Source of the DNA: a virus
Taxonomy: Duplodnaviria > Heunggongvirae > Uroviricota > Caudoviricetes
IMG/VR virus record: IMGVR_UViG_2531839179_000010
Length of the DNA: 4,472 bases
Strand: one strand, 5' to 3'
Below are positions 1 through 4,472 of this stretch, piece by piece. A model generated the notes under the pieces. It was not told the origin of the DNA. It worked only from the letters and a program-made list of their open reading frames with translations, and made no database searches. Each line of letters starts with the position of its first letter. The stretch's first letter is position 1. The position numbers and the translations under genes are program-made.

Positions 1-5
1 GGCGC

Positions 6-82
6 TGGCCCACCTCCGAGGACTCGAACCTCGCACCGTCAACTTAGAAGGTTGATGCTCTATCCGGATGAGCTAGTGGTGG
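6..82 (-). tRNA. tRNA-Arg (anticodon UCU), phage-borne argN/argU-like
   Basis: Reverse complement folds as a 77-nt cloverleaf: acceptor CCACCAC/GAGGTGG (one A.A mismatch at 6-67), D-arm GCTC-ATCCGGATA-GAGC, anticodon stem TCAAC/GTTGA with loop CTTCTAA (anticodon TCT), variable loop CGGTG, T-arm CGAGG-TTCGAGT-CCTCG, discriminator G, encoded CCA (plus-strand TGG at 6-8). Layout parallels E. coli argU as I recall it. Confidence 0.8.
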
Positions 83-83
83 T

Positions 84-160
84 TGGTGGCCCTTGCTGGA
101 CTTGAACCAGCGACCTGGCGATTATGAGTCGCTCGCTCTGACCAACTGAGCTAAAGGGCC
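84..160 (-). tRNA. tRNA-Ile2 (anticodon CAU, lysidine-type), ileX/ileZ-like
   Basis: Reverse complement GGCCCTTTAGCTCAGTTGGTCAGAGCGAGCGACTCATAATCGCCAGGTCGCTGGTTCAAGTCCAGCAAGGGCCACCA: perfect 7-bp acceptor GGCCCTT/AAGGGCC, anticodon loop CTCATAA, T-loop TTCAAGT, encoded CCA. Closely resembles E. coli ileX as recalled, not initiator or elongator Met. Only 1 nt (pos 83) separates it from the Arg tRNA. Confidence 0.8.
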
Positions 161-248
161 GGAGGCAGAATAATAACCATATGTCATCACATCTGCAAAC
201 TCATCTGACCACCAGCACGTTTAACGTCCTGTGCCGTTTTTCAGGTAT

Positions 249-272
249 AAAAAAACCCGCATAAAGCGGGCT
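249..272 (-). terminator. Intrinsic terminator, lambda tR'-like (late terminator downstream of Q)
   Basis: On minus strand: GC stem CCCGC (270-266), loop UUUAU, stem GCGGG (260-256), then a 7-U tract (plus A-run 249-255). The 3' end (tttttttatacctg) resembles the end of lambda tR' as recalled. Lies between the Q stop (350) and the tRNA genes. Confidence 0.7.
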
Positions 273-349
273 CTTTCAAATGTCCATGTCTGCTATTCGC
301 CTCGCGGTACAGCTTTGCGAAGCGTACAAGAATTGAAGCAGTTTTTACG

Positions 350-904
350 TCAAAAAGCAATAACTTTTTTCTCTATACCAAAAGCCATAACTATTGGTTT
401 GTACAAAATAAATTCTGCCACCTTTAGCCAATGCTCAATGCGTCTTTCACAGGTTCTTAAACTCCATTTCGGGTGTGCATCATTCAGCAGTTCAGCCATT
501 TTGCGTTTGGTCATCCCCCGCCCCTCATACCGTTGCCGAAGGACGCTAATCAATCCTGGATGCTCTGCCAGCACCTCACTTATGACCCGATCAATACATA
601 ACGCCTCTGCATCAGTACAATGCGCCAGCCAGCTCTTTTGCTTACCGTTAATCATATCCCGCAAAAAAGCCTCAAGTTCAGACTTGTTCAGACCTGCTTT
701 TTTCATCCTCCGGAGCGCCTCGTTAATTGCCGTTTTTGTCAGCTTTTTAGAGGTCAACATCAGGTTAAACATATTCCCCGTCTTACCGCCACCAATATAC
801 GACCAGCGCCCCCACATACGTAGTTTTCCCTGAATCCAGACACTTTCCAGCGTGGTGAGACGAAGGTGTTCTCCGCTTTTTCCTGTATTCGTTGGGTAAA
901 TCAT
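350..904 (-). CDS. Late-gene antiterminator Q (Q82/Q933-type family), 184 aa
   Basis: ORF-track frame 350..1024, trimmed to the ATG at 904-902, which has a strong SD (AAGGAGGG, 7 nt upstream) and overlaps the upstream stop (ATGA). N-terminal motif LRMWGRW...GNMFNLMLTSK parallels the LERWGAW...LITSK motif of Stx-phage Q as recalled. Position (after nin-like genes, before tR' and tRNAs) fits Q. Confidence 0.65.
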   Translation of the reverse strand: MIYPTNTGKSGEHLRLTTLESVWIQGKLRMWGRWSYIGGGKTGNMFNLMLTSKKLTKTAINEALRRMKKAGLNKSELEAFLRDMINGKQKSWLAHCTDAEALCIDRVISEVLAEHPGLISVLRQRYEGRGMTKRKMAELLNDAHPKWSLRTCERRIEHWLKVAEFILYKPIVMAFGIEKKVIAF

Positions 905-1191
905 AAATATCCCTCCTTTCTCCAGATTTCTTGTGTGCGAAAAACACCTTCTGCATGCATCAGGCGTAATTCTTCTTTGGTGTAATCGCTGGTTTTTACC
1001 CGCCCGTCGATTAAATCGTGGCACGAGCTACAGGCAATCGCTGCCTGCATATCGTGTGGCTTTATCGCTGTTCCGCACGTTCCCGCCAGTCGGTAATGCG
1101 CCAGCACAGACGTTTCCGGATCGTGATTGCAGTAGCCAGGAATTCTGACGGTGCACATCTGCCCCCGCGCCGCTTTAAGTAAATCCACCAT
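901..1191 (-). CDS. YbcO-like DUF1364 family protein (putative Zn-binding nuclease of lambdoid nin regions), 96 aa
   Basis: 96-aa ORF with Cys pairs (CTVRIPGYC...; ...ACSSCHDLIDGR), same length as E. coli DLP12 YbcO. SD GGAG 8 nt upstream; start overlaps the upstream stop (TAATG). Confidence 0.65.
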   Translation of the reverse strand: MVDLLKAARGQMCTVRIPGYCNHDPETSVLAHYRLAGTCGTAIKPHDMQAAIACSSCHDLIDGRVKTSDYTKEELRLMHAEGVFRTQEIWRKEGYL

Positions 1192-1790
1192 TACGCAAAC
1201 TCCAGCAGCTGCGCGGCCACATTTTCGACTTGTTCCGGAGAGGAAAATTTACGGAACAGAATCCAGTTCCACAGCACATTCAGTACAGATTTATAAACCT
1301 GCTGAAACTCGGTTTCGTCCATATTCGCAAACGCGATAGATTTCGCCCGACACCCACGGCTACCGTCCGGATAAAAATGCTCGGTGTAAAATCCGGCCTG
1401 AATGGCTACCCACTCGCGGAAAGCCTCAAACGACTTTAGCAATGCCGTATCACGGGTTCTGCGTGTCGCAACTGTATTCAGATATTGCTCTGCGGCTTCG
1501 CTCAGAGCTGGCGTATGTTCCCGGCCTACTAATTCACACAGGTAATCAACGAAACCGGACACCAGTTTTCGTTCGCGAGGCGTGATCGCCCCACCGACCG
1601 GAGTCCAGTAATCGAAACCCAGTTGCAGGAGTTTGAAAAAACGCTTGTGGAATGCGTAGTTACGCACACGCTTAAAGTCTGCGTGTATCCACTCACCTAT
1701 TTTGATTTGATGCAGAAAATCGCAACTCTCCGGCGTCGCCGGGAGAAGTAATCCGGAAGAGGTTTGTTTGACCAGTTGTATATGTGCCAT
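1191..1790 (-). CDS. DUF1367-like conserved lambdoid phage protein, 199 aa
   Basis: ORF-track frame 1191..1832, trimmed to the ATG at 1790-1788 (MAHIQLVKQ...) preceded by SD GGAGAAAG. About 200 aa and immediately upstream of a DUF1364 gene, as typical for DUF1367. Family assignment is from memory; the CDS itself is well supported. Confidence 0.6.
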   Translation of the reverse strand: MAHIQLVKQTSSGLLLPATPESCDFLHQIKIGEWIHADFKRVRNYAFHKRFFKLLQLGFDYWTPVGGAITPRERKLVSGFVDYLCELVGREHTPALSEAAEQYLNTVATRRTRDTALLKSFEAFREWVAIQAGFYTEHFYPDGSRGCRAKSIAFANMDETEFQQVYKSVLNVLWNWILFRKFSSPEQVENVAAQLLEFA

Positions 1791-1828
1791 CGGCTTTCTC
1801 CGGTGGCACGGTGTTACACAGCAGGAGT

Positions 1829-2116
1829 TCAATCCTGCTCAAGATTGTAGATGAGTTTATTCTTCAGCAAAAGCAGAAAACCAGCCTTAAAACCAATCTC
1901 TTTCAAAACCCGTAATGATGTGACAAATTCGTCCTCACGCAAAATAAAACCGTCCGTCAGAAGTCCATTACAAAAATAAAATAACACAGCACCGCTCTTC
2001 CTTTGTTGAGATTGCAAACATCTAATGCGGCAATGGCTGACAATCGCTCCATTCTCAACGCGCACAGCATAGAGGCCATTTTCACTAAAAATTTCACGCA
2101 ATTCTTCGATTTTCAT
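1829..2116 (-). CDS. Hypothetical protein, 95 aa (first gene of the nin-like operon)
   Basis: Intact ORF with ATG at 2116-2114 preceded by GGAAGGA SD-like sequence; no recognisable motif. Ends 38 nt upstream of the DUF1367-like start. Confidence 0.55.
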   Translation of the reverse strand: MKIEELREIFSENGLYAVRVENGAIVSHCRIRCLQSQQRKSGAVLFYFCNGLLTDGFILREDEFVTSLRVLKEIGFKAGFLLLLKNKLIYNLEQD

Positions 2117-2197
2117 CTTCAGAATCCTTCCAGATAAATAGCTCTCCCCTGTTCGGGGTCCATCCCTCTTCTCCCTGCGCGCTACTTAAGTGAGTCG

Positions 2198-2225
2198 ATT
2201 CTATCTGCGAAGGTGCGCGAATCAA
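2198..2225 (-). promoter_or_regulatory. Candidate sigma70 promoter for the 95-aa/DUF1367/YbcO/Q operon
   Basis: Minus strand TTGATT (2225-2220), 16-nt spacer, TAGAAT (2203-2198); immediately downstream of the hok terminator and about 80 nt upstream of the 95-aa ORF. Confidence 0.3.
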
Positions 2226-2235
2226 ATTCACCGGA

Positions 2236-2290
2236 AATAAACAACAAAAAACCCGCCGAAACGCTGAGAGATCACAGCGATGGGCGGGTT
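2236..2290 (-). terminator. Intrinsic terminator at the 3' end of the hok mRNA
   Basis: Minus strand: AACCCGCC (2290-2283), inner hairpin CGCTG/CAGCG, GGCGGGTT (2257-2250), then UUUUUUGUUGUUUAUUU. Lies about 75 nt downstream of the hok stop. Confidence 0.6.
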
Positions 2291-2365
2291 AAGTGCGGGT
2301 GCGTTGAGGATGCCTGACACATCAGAGGTGGGCGGGGATGGGATCAGCTCCCCGCCCGGTCACTC

Positions 2366-2521
2366 TTACTTCCTGGATTCGTAGTCTACGAAGACAGCGA
2401 CCTCCGTCTGGCCGGTTCGGATTCGTACCTCACAGAGGTCTTTCCTCGTTACCAGTGCCGTCACTATGACGGTTAAACAGATGACGATCAGGGCGATTAA
2501 CATCGCCTTTTGCTGCTTCAT
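2366..2521 (-). CDS. hok: Hok family type I toxin (HokD/RelF-like), 51 aa
   Basis: Translation MKQQKAMLIALIVICLTVIVTALVTRKDLCEVRIRTGQTEVAVFVDYESRK is near-identical to E. coli HokD/RelF as recalled (single TM helix, conserved Cys). SD AAGGAG 9 nt upstream of the ATG at 2521. Confidence 0.9.
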   Translation of the reverse strand: MKQQKAMLIALIVICLTVIVTALVTRKDLCEVRIRTGQTEVAVFVDYESRK

Positions 2522-2578
2522 AGCCTGCTTCTCCTTGCCTTTCGGCATGTAAGAGGCTAACCTACATGTGCAAAGCAT
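2366..2578 (-). CDS. mok: mok-like reading frame (in-frame 19-codon N-terminal extension of hok, as in chromosomal mokC), 70 aa
   Basis: In-frame upstream ATG at 2578 gives the leader MLCTCRLASYMPKGKEKQA, similar to the MokC N-terminus (MLNTCRVPLTDRKVKEKRA) as recalled. SD GAGG lies 9-10 nt upstream, where a Sok antisense RNA would pair. Confidence 0.55.
   Translation of the reverse strand: MLCTCRLASYMPKGKEKQAMKQQKAMLIALIVICLTVIVTALVTRKDLCEVRIRTGQTEVAVFVDYESRK
2544..2572 (+). promoter_or_regulatory. Candidate sok promoter (antisense to the mok start region)
   Basis: Plus strand TTGCCT (2544-2549), 17-nt spacer, TAACCT (2567-2572); predicted start near 2579, reading into the hok leader. Position corresponds to the sok promoter in plasmid R1 hok/sok. 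Confidence 0.35.
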
Positions 2579-2650
2579 GAAATTGGCCTCAGATTAATGT
2601 TAAGCGTCTTGCCGGACGCGTAATGTTAACTGGGGCTTTTCTCTATCTGC
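2579..2650 (+). ncRNA. sok: Sok-like antisense RNA (antitoxin of the hok/mok/sok system); boundaries approximate
   Basis: Inferred from the hok/sok architecture: the plus-strand transcript from the candidate promoter would be complementary to the mok SD and leader (2579-2650). The 3' end is not defined; a hairpin GCGTC-ttgccg-GACGC at 2603-2618 with a weak T-rich tail is one candidate. Confidence 0.35.
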
Positions 2651-2697
2651 CTTTTGGTGTTCATGCCTGAAGCAGATAGCCTCAAGCACCCGCAGTC

Positions 2698-2727
2698 ATT
2701 CTACTTACCTCGCCAATATGAAATCAA
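2698..2727 (-). promoter_or_regulatory. hok/mok promoter
   Basis: Minus strand TTGATT (2727-2722), 18-nt spacer, TAGAAT (2703-2698). Predicted start near 2693-2691, at the 5' fold-back element GCGGGUGCUUGAGG, which resembles the 5' end of R1 hok mRNA. Confidence 0.5.
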
Positions 2728-2748
2728 TCAGAAAGGTGCCCCATAAAA

Positions 2749-3435
2749 TCACTCCTTCTCTTCTTTACCGTAGTGGAGTTGACCAATTTTGATAAGAGGG
2801 CGTCCCTGAGATTTGCGGTGTAGATTGGTATCGCGCAGAGAATACACACAGCCACAATATTCCTGCTGATAGAATTTTTCGCGCTTGCTGATTTCAATCA
2901 TACGGGACGAGCCGCCCTGCTTGCGCCAGTTATAATCCCAGTACACCATGCCCGGATAATGCGCGACGGCTCGCCGCCCACAGTCGTTAACCTGCTGCAT
3001 ATTTTTCCAGCGTGAAATGCCCAGTGAACTGCTGATCACACTGAAACCATTTTCAGCGGCGTACAGCGCTGTCCGCTCAAAACGCATGTCAAAACACATG
3101 GTGCAACGGATCCCTCGTTCGGGCTCCCATTCCATTCCTTTGGCTCGTTCAAACCAGTTGTCTGTGTCGTAATCAGCATCAATAAACGGCACGCCGTGTT
3201 GTTCAGCAAAGCGAATATTCTCATCCTTACGAATTAAATACTCTTTCTGAGGATGAATGTTCGGGTTGTAGAAAAAGATGGTGTAGTCGATTCCCGAGGC
3301 CTGAAGCGCCTCCATCACCTCACCGGAACATGGAGCACAGCAAGAGTGCAGTAGTAGTTTGTTTGCCCCGTTTGGGAGCTCCAATTTGGGCCGTTTGAAA
3401 TCAGCAACTGTCATAAATATGTTTATTGGGGTCAT
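2749..3435 (-). CDS. QueH-like (DUF208) putative epoxyqueuosine reductase, 228 aa
   Basis: Intact 228-aa ORF with the N-terminal motif [11 protein letters not shown], which I recognise as the DUF208/QueH Fe-S signature, plus further conserved-looking Cys/His/Asp ([16 protein letters not shown]). Start ATG at 3435 has no obvious SD, so the start is uncertain (second ATG 7 codons in). Confidence 0.6.
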
Positions 3436-3582
3436 AAAAATATCAAAGAGTGTAGCATTAGAACGGGGCTATCGGAAACAGATGTGTGACTGCTCCCCGC
3501 CCTTTCGGGCGGTCTCCTGATGATTTGAGGGTGCAGAAATCCCTCCGGTTAAGGATTAAATTTTTAACAGTGCTAAATTTAA

Positions 3583-3939
3583 TTATTCAGTTCTGGATTT
3601 TGTCGCCCTGCGTATCCGCGCTTTCGCGTTACGCTCAATCTGTATCAGCTTTTCTATATTTCTCCGCCTTTCCTGTTCCTCCTGGCGCAATAGCCTTACA
3701 TCATCTGCCAGTCTGGTTTCTCTTTTTGCCACAGAGAGCATCCAGTCAAACGGCTCCACAACCGCACCGCAGATTTTACAGCGGACCTGACGCTCTTTTT
3801 CGTCAACCCGTACAGAGGCGTGATGGCAATATGGTCTTTCCGATGGATCATAAAGAAAATTAACCTGATTACGAGGGTCATCCTCTTTTACCGGAAATAA
3901 AACAATATTACTTAACTCATCTTCTGGTTTTATTTCCAC
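3583..3939 (-). CDS. Hypothetical zinc-ribbon protein with basic C-terminal helix, 118 aa from GTG (129 aa from TTG at 3972)
   Basis: ORF-track frame 3583..3972; preferred start is GTG at 3939-3937 with SD AAGGAG (3951-3946) 6 nt upstream. Contains C-H-H...C-x-I-C (PYCHHASVRVDEKERQVRCKICG) and an Arg/Glu-rich C-terminal region. No family recognised. Confidence 0.55.
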   Translation of the reverse strand: MEIKPEDELSNIVLFPVKEDDPRNQVNFLYDPSERPYCHHASVRVDEKERQVRCKICGAVVEPFDWMLSVAKRETRLADDVRLLRQEEQERRRNIEKLIQIERNAKARIRRATKSRTE

Positions 3940-3940
3940 G

Positions 3941-4000
3941 TCACTCTCCTTTGATGCGAATGCCTGCGGCAATTAGTGCCTGATAACTAATTTCACTCAC
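3941..4000 (-). CDS. Candidate 19-aa leader/small ORF (VSEISYQALIAAGIRIKGE) upstream of the zinc-ribbon gene
   Basis: GTG at 4000-3998 preceded by strong SD AGGAGGTGG (7-nt spacer). Its stop TGA (3943-3941) lies 1 nt before the downstream GTG and its last codons contain the downstream SD. Confidence 0.25.
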   Translation of the reverse strand: MSEISYQALIAAGIRIKGE

Positions 4001-4124
4001 AGTACCACCTCCTGAAAATTACCCTGATAGAAAGCCAGTACACGCTGCATAACTTCGCTTTTACGACACTCAGTACAAATTATATTATGACGCCTGTCGT
4101 AACGACGTATTTCTCCGTCAGGTA

Positions 4125-4452
4125 TGAGGTAGCCTGAGTTTAACGGACACTCCTTCCTGAAATAGAATGGCATCAGAAGGAGCTAATAATGAGCAGAAAA
4201 ACCCAACGTTACTCTAAAGAGTTCAAAGCCGAAGCTGTCAGAACGGTTCTTGAAAATCAACTTTCGATCAGTGAAGGCGCTTCCCGATTATCCCTTCCTG
4301 AAGGCACTTTAGGACAATGGGTTACCGCCGCCAGAAAAGGGCTCGGTACTCCTGGTTCCCGCACGGTGGCTGAACTGGAATCTGAAATTCTGCAACTGCG
4401 TAAGGCGTTAAATGAAGCTCGCCTTGAGCGAGATATATTAAAAAAAAGCAAC
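4125..4452 (+). mobile_element. IS3-family insertion sequence (IS600-like), left end only; truncated by an IS30-like insertion
   Basis: Left terminal repeat begins TGAGGTAGCCTGAGTTTAACGGACAC at 4125, 64 bp upstream of orfA. IS sequence stops at about 4452 where IS30-like terminal sequence begins. Confidence 0.65.
4189..4452 (+). pseudogene. IS3-family transposase OrfA (IS600-like), 3'-truncated
   Basis: Translation MSRKTQRYSKEFKAEAVRTVLENQLSISEGASRLSLPEGTLGQWVTAARKGLGTPGSRTVAELESEILQLRKALNEARLERDILKK matches IS600 OrfA as recalled (HTH plus leucine zipper). It ends in the A-run frameshift window (4440-4447) and then diverges into IS30-like sequence. Confidence 0.7.
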
Positions 4453-4472
4453 TGTAGATTCAATTGGTCAAC
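4453..4472 (+). mobile_element. IS30-like terminal inverted repeat (element continues beyond the window)
   Basis: TGTAGATTCAATTGGTCAAC matches the IS30 terminal repeat as I recall it; it begins exactly where the IS600-like orfA reading frame loses similarity. Confidence 0.5.

Follow-up and report, generated by a model that had tools for sequence, protein, structure and literature searches.

A probable early/late operon junction with a Q-type switch and a tRNA cassette in a lambdoid prophage of the Shigella/Escherichia coli group

In the published definition of a Q cassette (10.1101/651190), the Q gene is followed by the promoter PR' and a pause element, and then by a terminator and late genes. 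An AntQ-IsrK arrangement has been shown experimentally in Gifsy-1, where AntQ interferes with termination and where orf45 and the anti-repressor gene anrP lie after isrK (PMC4825925). IsrK has been described as being transcribed from a phage promoter under antitermination control, and the interval between PR' and tR' in Stx2 phages is 258 nt (PMC7547250). The presence of tRNA genes downstream of Q has been described for SfI, Sf6, ST64T and P21 (PMC3636060).

The locus studied here is the left end (positions 1 to 904) of a 4,472-nt stretch of DNA, hereafter the window, taken from the Caudoviricetes record IMGVR_UViG_2531839179_000010 of IMG/VR. A first-pass annotation, made from the letters alone, had described on the minus strand a Q-type gene, a terminator, a tRNA-Ile2(CAU), a one-base spacer and a tRNA-Arg(UCU). 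This order was confirmed, the spacer between the two tRNA genes being position 83, and ARAGORN, which had been proposed as a check, called both genes, as tRNA(CAT) and tRNA-Arg(TCT), at the positions given in Table 1. The region is of an ordinary and known kind, the module that controls the late genes of a lambda-like prophage. From gene identities, homologies, the conservation of elements and the downstream genes of relatives, all of which could be read directly, we consider it very probable that 1-904 on the minus strand forms the junction between the early-right (nin) and late operons of a lambdoid prophage of the Shigella/E. coli group, equipped with a Q switch and a tRNA cassette.

Table 1. 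Features assigned at the left end of the window, in order of position.
Feature	Position	Strand	Evidence
First three bases (GCC) of tRNA-Thr(UGU)	1..3	-	read from L001, L035, L041
tRNA-Arg(UCU), argN-lineage scaffold, A6.A67 mismatch	6..82	-	ARAGORN, Rfam, alignment
tRNA-Ile2 type (anticodon CAU, ileZ/ileX homologue)	84..160	-	ARAGORN, Rfam, alignment, PGAP
Sigma-70-type promoter just upstream of the tRNA genes, TTGCAG (198-193)-N17-TATTAT (175-170)	170..199	-	promoter scan, conservation
Intrinsic terminator, tR'-like: 13-bp hairpin, GC core 270-266/260-256, U7 run 255-249	248..278	-	folding, conservation
Candidate PR' -10 hexamer TACGCT, predicted start near 314	321..326	-	conservation, inferred
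Second PR' -10 candidate (extended -10, TGcTTCAAT), start predicted near 325	332..340	-	conserved block, inferred
Late-gene antiterminator, Q-like, 184 aa, DUF1133/AntQ type; stop TGA 352-350	350..904	-	Pfam, PHROG, profile, Foldseek

On sequence comparison, the product of the Q gene is assigned to the DUF1133/AntQ type, as a distant member of the Q21 family (PF06530), and it is not Q933W. The protein scored 354 bits with Pfam DUF1133 and 29.4 bits, against a cutoff of 26, with PF06530 (Phage_antitermQ); PF06530 was matched by 20 of 20 DUF1133 family members, the best at 1.3e-9, and the corresponding PHROG 753 carries the description "anti-termination protein Q-like". A profile of the DUF1133 family matched the Q21 chains 6P18/6JNX with E=6e-6. 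The AF2 model, built from an alignment of sequences at least 71% identical, was of low confidence (mean pLDDT 56.8, with the N-terminal half below 50 and only residues 100-175 confident). When PDB was searched by Foldseek with this low-confidence model, the top four matches were all Q21 structures (probability 1.00, TM 0.49-0.55, E from 5e-3 to 3e-2); the next match was found at E>3, and no others had a probability of 1.00. A single-sequence AF2 model with a pLDDT of 42 was set aside. DUF1133 proteins can be annotated as Q21-family antiterminators accompanied by a recognizable conserved promoter hexamer and terminator.

The genes downstream of the window were read from relatives, the closest of which is L041, with one mismatch in 3825 bases. 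Nine near-identical contigs or genomes were used, namely L001, L035, L036-L039 and L041, together with L008 and L009 for tRNAs only, and the exact Q protein of the window is carried by L036-L039. To the left of the window, these nine relatives have a tRNA-Thr(UGU) and then a fourth tRNA. The tRNA-Thr gene ends at locus position 12003 in L001, which corresponds to window base 3, and at the same base in L035 and L041. The fourth tRNA is Gly(UCC) in L001 and L041 according to a tRNA scan of these two; in CFSAN029787 it is 71 nt long and annotated as Val. Beyond the tRNAs, genes for a class II holin, an RrrD lysozyme and Rz follow in L001, L035, L036-L039 and L041. The spacer from tRNA-Gly to the holin in L001 (11171-11849, 679 nt) showed no stx similarity and no Rfam family; none of its ORFs was convincing, and none of its phage matches was informative. 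It had been suggested that a third tRNA and a toxin or lysis cassette might lie beyond position 1; further tRNAs and lysis genes are indeed present there in the relatives, and neither argO nor stx was found left of the window in the near-identical relatives examined.

With the Rfam tRNA model, whose gathering score is 29, tRNA-Arg(UCU) scored 51.4 bits (E=2.9e-9) and its intact copy in L001 56.4 bits. The anticodon loop, CTTCTAA, contains C35 and U36, and in the D-loop, ATCCGGATA, position 20 is A; A20, C35 and U36 are identity elements for ArgRS. The gene lacks a fully paired 7-bp acceptor stem. Window base 15 is T, a change private against every relative examined, and because of this T the acceptor stem has an A6.A67 mismatch, where L001, L008, L035 and L041, which have A at this base, pair A6-U67. 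The mismatch may impair the window copy of tRNA-Arg. The closest match to this gene in 5426 E. coli genomes was 98.8% identical, with one mismatch, and the UCU form of the argN-scaffold tRNA was found in 16 of 5426 complete E. coli genomes.

The prophage in this host is decaying and IS-disrupted, and it must be asked whether the module is an inactive relic here, belonging to a defective prophage in which the elements no longer serve as a switch. Past position 4128 the region is replaced by an IS600 orfA that is itself interrupted by IS30, the DUF977 gene is truncated and the replication region is cut. The private stem-breaking change in tRNA-Arg points in the same direction, as does Shigella flexneri SFBU1023, in which the same Q gene is split over two chromosomal sites (L008, L029). 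We nevertheless regard inactivity of the module as a doubtful, though real, possibility. The ORFs of Q, YbcO, DUF1367, QueH and hok are all intact, and prophages that appear complete have copies of them with 99-100% identity; the terminator, the promoters and tRNA-Ile are unchanged. Moreover, even a prophage that had lost its viability would not thereby cease to express the tRNAs or a short RNA.

The terminator sequence on the minus strand is GAAAGAGCCCGC-UUUAU-GCGGGUUUUUUU. Its folding energy is -18.2 kcal/mol (z = -6.8), a value reached by none of 200 shuffles, while the plus-strand reading gives only -9.3 kcal/mol. An equivalent hairpin followed by a T-run is found 45-92 nt past the Q stop in 20 of the 22 DUF1133 loci, which come from many enterobacterial genera. 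A consensus terminator scan of 1-1000 reported no terminator, and this result was overridden after folding; the scan likely missed the element because the upstream A-run pairs with the U-run, so that the Us are counted as stem.

Right after the Q stop, a TAnGCT hexamer (TATATT in isrK loci) is conserved in 21 of the 22 loci, often with a TGn extension on its 5' side, and in isrK loci the Rfam isrK match begins 7 nt past the hexamer. This conservation points to the hexamer at 326-321 as the likely -10 element of PR' and the best candidate for it. In the window, TACGCT agrees with TATAAT at three of six positions and is without a clear -35 element. A second block, AACTGCTTCAATT, is kept in the window, L005, L006 and L007, and could be a -10 element or, equally, a Q-binding element. 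The assignment of PR' is ambiguous, since both 326-321 and 340-332 are candidates for its -10 element, and a consensus promoter scan gave no canonical promoter in the PR' region. A TTGACG overlapping the Q stop codon was considered as a -35 element and rejected, because its spacing to either of the -10 candidates is 10 or 21 nt.

Orthologues of the DUF1133 protein in L003 and L010, 76-82% identical to the window Q, are followed 33 nt past their stop codons by Rfam isrK matches of 67-76 bits; over L003 and L010, true isrK gave 67-81 bits. The IsrK (RF01394) match in the window, at 250-323(-), reached 19.9 bits against a gathering score of 50; membership of the short unit in isrK was rejected at this score, and only the positional analogy is kept. 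Other weak Rfam matches within 247-334 (Trp leader at 23 bits, STnc370, OrzO-P, RyhB and others) are far under their gathering scores and driven by the terminator hairpin, and were rejected; a Plastid-ycf2 match on the plus strand is the antisense of a tRNA. StxS and IsrK typify a class of small RNAs derived from phages, and the short transcript running from PR' to the terminator is a candidate member of it.

The tRNA promoter was read by the promoter scan as TTTGCA-18-TATTAT, and the element was also called in L002 and L001. In an alignment of the window with Stx2a_F349, 689R5 and PPompW, GTTATTAT is invariant and TTGCA is kept, while most of the flanking sequence diverges. The promoter is conserved over four different Q contexts. 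For the Thr-Gly-only tRNA arrays in L006, the promoter scan gave generic matches only. Since the promoter is conserved wherever the cassette occurs, the tRNA genes are probably expressed independently of Q as well. In Stx2a_F349, the tRNA cassette ends in a terminator of its own ahead of stx2A.

These observations can be combined in a model, in which promoter activity, start sites, Q-dependent read-through, tRNA charging and a benefit to translation are predicted. The last early gene would provide an antiterminator of the Q type, belonging to the Q21 family and, within it, to the DUF1133/AntQ branch. The short unit after it would consist of a likely constitutive PR', with TACGCT as its -10 element, and the terminator, and its sole product in a lysogen would be an RNA about 70-80 nt long. 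After induction, RNA polymerase at PR' would be loaded with Q and would read through the terminator, giving a transcript that would cover the tRNAs of the window, the further tRNAs, the holin, lysozyme and Rz genes and the morphogenesis genes to the left. Transcription from the cassette's own sigma-70 promoter is predicted to start a few bases 5' of tRNA-Ile, and, because the cassette has this promoter, its tRNAs would probably be made in the lysogen too, without Q. The cassette would decode A-ending codons that are commoner in the prophage than in the host, namely AUA and AGA and, by the tRNAs outside the window, ACA (Thr) and GGA (Gly); decoding of AUA by tRNA-Ile2 would follow lysidine formation by the host TilS.

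Another account would let the hairpin at 278-248 just end the early-right operon and leave the tRNAs autonomous, constitutive and outside the Q-controlled late transcript. It draws on the cassette's own conserved promoter, on the terminator before stx2A in Stx2a_F349 and on the weak match of the PR' elements of the window to consensus. We judge it improbable, because the terminator keeps its distance of 45-92 nt from the Q stop in DUF1133 loci with or without tRNAs (20 of 22), a conserved -10-like hexamer stands ahead of it, this layout is the one that defines a Q cassette, and a short RNA starts there in isrK loci. The lysis genes, furthermore, lie co-oriented downstream, and they were not found to have any other promoter dedicated to them. 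The autonomous and Q-driven views are also compatible with each other, since basal expression from the cassette promoter could be combined with a Q-driven boost on induction.

In the L001 prophage, the codon frequencies per 1000 are 8.6-11.8 for AUA, 5.2-7.9 for AGA, 4.9-7.3 for AGG, 11.1-14.1 for ACA and 10.7-12.6 for GGA. Averages for E. coli K-12 are about 4, 2, 1-2, 7 and 8 per 1000, respectively. The use of these five codons in L001 is thus approximately 1.3- to 6-fold over these K-12 averages. A value of 7.1 per 1000 codons has been given for ACA in S. flexneri 301 (PMC3636060).

Three anticodons are seen on the argN scaffold: UCU in the window, UCG in Stx2 phages, and, in 689R5 and PPompW, UUU together with an unusual C33. 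These variants suggest the speculative and, in our estimate, rather unlikely idea that the cassette is self-contained and mobile among lambdoid phages with unrelated Q genes, and that the argN anticodon has been rewritten at least twice and retuned to the codon demand of each prophage or host. If this reading were true, the UCU form would be a rare variant of Shigella and EIEC-like strains.

The likeness to the ileZ-argN(-argO) cluster that the first-pass annotation had seen extends to part of the region. The tRNA pair is homologous, with 87.9% identity over 6-177 and the same one-base spacer; the Arg anticodon, however, is UCU against UCG in argN of the Stx2 phage compared, and the third tRNA is Thr(UGU), not argO. 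In the proposed BLAST search against phages, 6-177 matched Stx2 phages, whereas 178-350 had no phage match at the megablast level; the DNA similarity to Stx2 phages stops at window base 177. Among the 296 matching phage records, 173 are named as Stx phages. The description of the arrangement as typical of Stx-converting phages was not upheld: only the two tRNAs are Stx-like, Q is of the DUF1133/AntQ type, 178-350 is unmatched, and the same tRNA cassette is found behind other Q types in non-Stx phages. Since tRNAs after Q also occur in non-Stx phages, the arrangement is general to lambdoid phages and not diagnostic of Stx phages.

It could still be supposed that the module belongs to a Shiga-toxin-converting phage, or to what remains of one, with stx or another toxin just to the left under Q control. 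The identity of about 88% between the tRNA pair and ileZ-argN of Stx2 phages, together with the many records of Stx phages among the matches, would agree with this, and a DUF1133-type Q occurs in the phage records Rac-SA53 and SerU-LTIIb, which we take to be LT-II toxin prophages. It has also been found in 13 Stx phages (PMC8136144). The supposition is nevertheless hardly credible: the near-identical relatives examined go on to tRNA-Thr, the fourth tRNA, holin, lysozyme and Rz with the toxin gene absent, the 679-nt spacer before the holin has neither stx similarity nor a convincing ORF, and the region 178-350 and Q are unlike those of Stx phages.

By ARAGORN, tRNA-Ile2 is 77 nt long, and it scored 70.5 bits (E=1.6e-14) with the Rfam tRNA model, in whose alignment its acceptor stem is free of non-canonical pairs. 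In an alignment with ileZ, ileX, metT and metU, its 5' end is GGCCCTT and its 3' end AAGGGCC, compared with GGCTACG in metT/metU. It tracks K-12 ileX and ileZ throughout, the lone acceptor-stem difference being compensated (T6-A67 vs C6-G67), and its acceptor, anticodon and T stems set it apart from metT/metU. The pairs C4-G69 and C5-G68 stand where tRNA-Met has U4-A69 and A5-U68; the former two are reportedly discriminators used by TilS against tRNA-Met. These pairs and the alignment with K-12 ileX, not metT/metU, bear out the earlier claim that the CAU tRNA is of the Ile type, and judged by its sequence it is an Ile2-type tRNA, predicted to read AUA after lysidine modification. That it is instead an elongator tRNA-Met, which is the label given by ARAGORN and which the CAU anticodon, by itself, can't tell from Ile2, has very little probability, given the alignment siding with ileX/ileZ, the presence of C4-G69 and C5-G68, and the tRNA-Ile label given to the identical gene by PGAP.

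These results mostly settle an annotation, identifying a probable late-gene switch of a non-toxigenic lambdoid prophage, likely one of Shigella sonnei or a close relative, and not of an Stx phage. It follows that toxin cargo should not be deduced from an ileZ/argN-like tRNA pair after Q. Because the cassette has a conserved promoter of its own, it may raise the supply of rare-codon tRNAs (AUA, AGA, ACA, GGA) in lysogens, and it could in this way affect the expression of horizontally acquired genes.

Comparison with known systems places the locus as follows. The cassette of phage 21 is laid out in the same way, its Q gene being followed by a promoter, for which the window has candidates, a terminator and late genes, and its Q protein (Q21; PDB 6P18, 6P19, 6JNX) shows detectable sequence homology to the window Q, with an identity of only about 18-20%; the two 8-bp direct-repeat subsites described for Q21 were not found in the window cassette. 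The AntQ-IsrK locus of Gifsy-1 shares the Q family (DUF1133), and in loci of this type a short terminated RNA lies directly after the Q stop. There, however, a C4-type antisense RNA comes next, where the window has tRNA genes, and the short unit is of another sequence type.

Among chromosomal genes, ileX of K-12 has the same anticodon and the same identity pairs as the window tRNA-Ile2 and a high overall similarity to it. The K-12 argU and the window tRNA-Arg both have a UCU anticodon and, therefore, the same codon specificity, but the window gene stands outside the argU/argO lineage, beginning with CCACCAC, not GCGCCCT, and differing in its stems.

The Stx2 phage Stx2a_F349 (AP012530), from whose annotation the names ileZ, argN and argO were taken, is like the window in the order of Q gene, terminator, tRNA promoter (TTGCAA-17-TATTAT), tRNA-Ile2, argN-scaffold tRNA and late genes. 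Its tRNA-Ile2 is about 96% identical to that of the window, and the one-base spacer is shared; L002 has this spacer. In contrast, its Q is a protein of 162 aa annotated as "late antiterminator Q protein", while the window Q is a DUF1133 protein of 184 aa; its argN has the anticodon UCG, not UCU; and its third tRNA is argO(UCU), with stx2AB present, where the relatives of the window have Thr(UGU) and a fourth tRNA and lack stx2AB. The PR'-tR' interval of Stx2 phages of the 933W/Sp5 type is of unrelated sequence and longer than that of the window.

The slot between Q and the lysis genes is used for tRNA genes in SfI, Sf6, ST64T, P21, vB_EcoS-689R5 and PPompW as in the window, and tRNA-Thr(UGU) is recurrent among them. 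The Q of these phages is of other types than that of the window, and SfI has Asn and Thr tRNAs. Both 689R5 and PPompW have a Q of 229 aa and the argN-like tRNA with UUU and C33 mentioned above, and in 689R5 the array is homologous to that of the window and its relatives, with Ile2, the argN-like tRNA, Thr and Gly followed by the holin.

Every gene in window 1-4173 lies on the minus strand (see the table), and these genes are the early-right (nin) region of a lambdoid prophage, leading into the late region. The order Q, terminator, tRNA-Ile, 1-nt spacer and tRNA-Arg, which had been read from the sequence in the first-pass annotation, was borne out by ARAGORN, Rfam and hairpin folding. On the strength of the tRNA calls, the Rfam scores and the folded hairpin, this gene order is real and no chance pattern. 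From about 4128 the prophage gives way to IS600 orfA, which is broken at 4452/4453 by an IS30 end (TGTAGATTCAATTGGTCAAC). This IS600::IS30 composite (window 4128-4472), which truncates the prophage DUF977 gene, is annotated in E. coli MLI106K4 and carried by more than half of complete E. coli genomes. The hok/sok type I toxin-antitoxin locus is complete (Hok ORF, 2366-2521), and the prophage that bears the tRNA gene array also encodes a tRNA-modification enzyme, the epoxyqueuosine reductase QueH.

Coordinates of features in the window and in related loci (L-numbers)
Feature	Position	Strand	Remark
Truncated DUF977 gene	3997-4173	-	
Zinc-ribbon ORF	3583-3972	-	
QueH	2749-3435	-	
hok/sok	2366-2691	-	sok RNA 117 bits
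Rem-like ORF	1829-2116	-	
DUF1367	1191-1793	-	NinB/Orf-like by PHROGs
YbcO	901-1191	-	
184-aa DUF1133 protein (Q)	350-904	-	stop codon 352-350
Two tRNA genes	84-160 and 6-82	-	
argN-scaffold tRNA copies	window 6-82; L002 4001-4077; L030 3006-3082; L031 3001-3076		
Split Q gene	L008/L009 6001-6453; L028/L029 6001-6114		
isrK/C4 regions	L003 6575-6776; L010 3290-3476 and 6588-6768		

The 184-aa protein matched Pfam DUF1133 at 354 bits and also scored above the curated cutoff for the Q21/Q933W family, PF06530 (29.4 vs 26 bits), which was matched by all 20 collected DUF1133 proteins (16 named genera) as well. The only PDB chains found with a profile of the collected proteins were those of Q21 (E=6e-6), and the family is Q-like according to PHROGs. 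The AF2 model of Q, built on a shallow alignment and confident in part only, had four Q21 entries and no others as its probability-1.00 structural matches. DUF1133 was identified as a Q antiterminator by HHpred in an earlier Stx-phage survey (PMC8136144). Rfam isrK was found above threshold 33 nt past the stop of 76-82%-identical Q orthologues in E. coli and Salmonella, and these loci agree with the Gifsy-1 AntQ-IsrK locus, at which AntQ hinders termination and the short terminated RNA is IsrK (PMC4825925; PMC7547250).

The best protein match was a Shigella sonnei cluster. DUF1133 proteins 91 and 87% identical to the window's were found on a contig binned as 'Candidatus Nanosynbacter' (JARKOR010000130.1) and in the Actinobacillus phage vB_Apl-pPE4 record (PP818812.1), respectively; each of the two resembles enterobacterial prophage DNA filed under an unexpected name. 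The same Q gene is split in Shigella flexneri SFBU1023 and E. coli ECMA0423, where codons 1-38 and 35-184 are found at chromosomal sites far from each other, suggesting IS-mediated rearrangement of this prophage. Where a DUF1133 locus is of the isrK type, isrK and a c4-a1b1 target match overlap and a C4 antisense RNA comes next; this suggests that Q is directly followed by a P1-like immI (c4/ant) module. Two isrK/C4 copies are present in the Salmonella locus, at a distance of 3.3 kb.

Between the Q stop and the tRNAs, a hairpin with a GC core (270-266/260-256) is followed by U7 (255-249). Its folding energy is -18.2 kcal/mol (z = -6.8 vs shuffles), that of the opposite strand merely -9.3 kcal/mol. 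A consensus terminator scan did not detect this hairpin; pairing between the U-run and the A-run upstream is the probable reason. Among the 22 DUF1133 loci compared, 21 have the hexamer TAnGCT right after the Q stop (TATATT where isrK is present), frequently extended by TGn, and a GC-rich hairpin with a T-run occurs 45-92 nt past the stop in 20. In isrK loci, the RNA match starts 7 nt downstream of the hexamer. By analogy, the leading candidate for the -10 element of the late promoter PR' is TACGCT (326-321), from which transcription would start near 314 and give an RNA of ~65 nt ending at ~249. TGcTTCAAT (340-332) is a second candidate, for which the start would lie near 325. The conserved block AACTGCTTCAATT might instead be a Q-binding element. 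A Q gene followed by such a short unit is the layout by which Q cassettes are defined (10.1101/651190), and we infer promoter activity, a pause element and a Q-binding site in the window.

ARAGORN, proposed earlier as a check on both tRNAs, called tRNA(CAT) at 84-160 and tRNA-Arg(TCT) at 6-82, one base apart; the Rfam tRNA model gave them 70.5 and 51.4 bits. The CAU tRNA aligns over its full length with K-12 ileX and Stx2-phage ileZ. It contains the pairs C4-G69 and C5-G68, and three of its stems set it apart from metT/metU. An identical gene is tRNA-Ile according to PGAP in two complete genomes. Judged by sequence, it is of the Ile2 type and would read AUA once lysidine-modified. The second tRNA has A20, C35 and U36 with the anticodon UCU, and alignment places it outside the argU/argO lineage, on the CCACCAC-starting scaffold of argN of Stx2 phages. 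Across prophages, the argN-lineage scaffold (5' end CCRCCA) bears three anticodons, UCU in the window, UCG in Stx2 phage Stx2a_F349 and UUU in phages 689R5 and PPompW, the last form having C33 in place of the near-universal U. Base 15 of the window is T; it is A in the near-identical E. coli prophage L001, S. flexneri SFBU1023, E. coli CFSAN029787 and GCA_013975985.1. This T turns acceptor pair 6-67 of tRNA-Arg from A6-U67 into A.A and lowers the score from 56.4 to 51.4 bits. The UCU form was found in only 16 of 5426 complete E. coli genomes, all with A at base 15, and the T variant in none of the 5426; the substitution may be either genuine mutational decay or an artefact of sequencing.

Immediately upstream of tRNA-Ile is TTGCAG-N17-TATTAT (198-170). 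When the window is aligned with the Stx2 phage, 689R5 and PPompW, all four share the GTTATTAT block without change and retain TTGCA, and the Stx2 sequence farther upstream is unrelated. The same promoter element was called in Stx2a_F349 (AP012530) and L001. In Stx2a_F349, the promoter (TTGCAA-17-TATTAT, L002 3879-3896) and a terminator-like hairpin (L002 4164-4192), located after argO and just before stx2A, bracket ileZ-argN-argO. Three kinds of Q gene precede the cassette: DUF1133 (window), 162-aa (Stx2a_F349) and 229-aa (689R5, PPompW). We infer that the tRNA cassette is a portable unit with its own promoter, basally expressed in lysogens; after induction, Q-modified polymerase would additionally transcribe it. 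In other species, most DUF1133 loci lack tRNAs and a few carry Thr-Gly alone, which marks the tRNA array as variable cargo. Of 5426 complete E. coli genomes, only 10 have the 352-nt module in full.

Contigs that encode the exact Q protein occur in 75 blocks of the assembly collection. The closest contig (GCA_013975985.1) equals window 1-3825 apart from base 15 and continues beyond the window with tRNA-Thr(UGU), which from the relatives begins at window base 3, tRNA-Gly(UCC), holin and lysozyme. The order is unchanged in E. coli FDAARGOS_944 (99.2% over 1-4127) and CFSAN029787, where Rz, terminase and head genes come next. Lysis genes, as suggested for the left, are present in these near-identical relatives; their third tRNA is tRNA-Thr(UGU), and neither the suggested argO nor stx nor any other toxin gene was found in them to the left of the window. 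Ahead of the holin gene is a non-coding spacer that has more terminator-like hairpins. In CFSAN029787, the fourth tRNA is a 71-nt gene annotated tRNA-Val (L035 6854-6924) replacing tRNA-Gly(UCC), and the array-to-holin distance is ~290 nt vs ~680 nt in FDAARGOS_944.

In the L001 prophage, the codons that the array's four tRNAs decode are used at 8.6-11.8 (AUA), 5.2-7.9 (AGA), 11.1-14.1 (ACA) and 10.7-12.6 (GGA) per 1000 codons, rates which we take to be above the E. coli averages. These rates fit the usual explanation, by which the phage tRNAs would supplement the decoders of rare A-ending codons for late genes. The same codon-supply argument was made for ACA in the SfI paper (PMC3636060).

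DUF1133-type Q with 68-70% identity is present in the Rac-SA53 and SerU-LTIIb phage records (H62, H63, H86; MN652886, KU052037, KU052038), known as LT-II enterotoxin prophages, and therefore can sit upstream of toxin cargo in other phages. The proposed match to the ileZ-argN cluster holds as homology; its Stx-phage framing is not supported. The Q type, PR'-tR' sequence, argN anticodon, third tRNA and downstream cargo are all different. Many non-Stx lambdoid phages have tRNAs in this slot. Three observations stand out as the least ordinary: a single tRNA scaffold bears three anticodons, the cassette promoter is conserved, and the tRNA-Arg stem has a private mutation. The components of the module are all of kinds already known, and public genomes contain annotated copies that are nearly identical.
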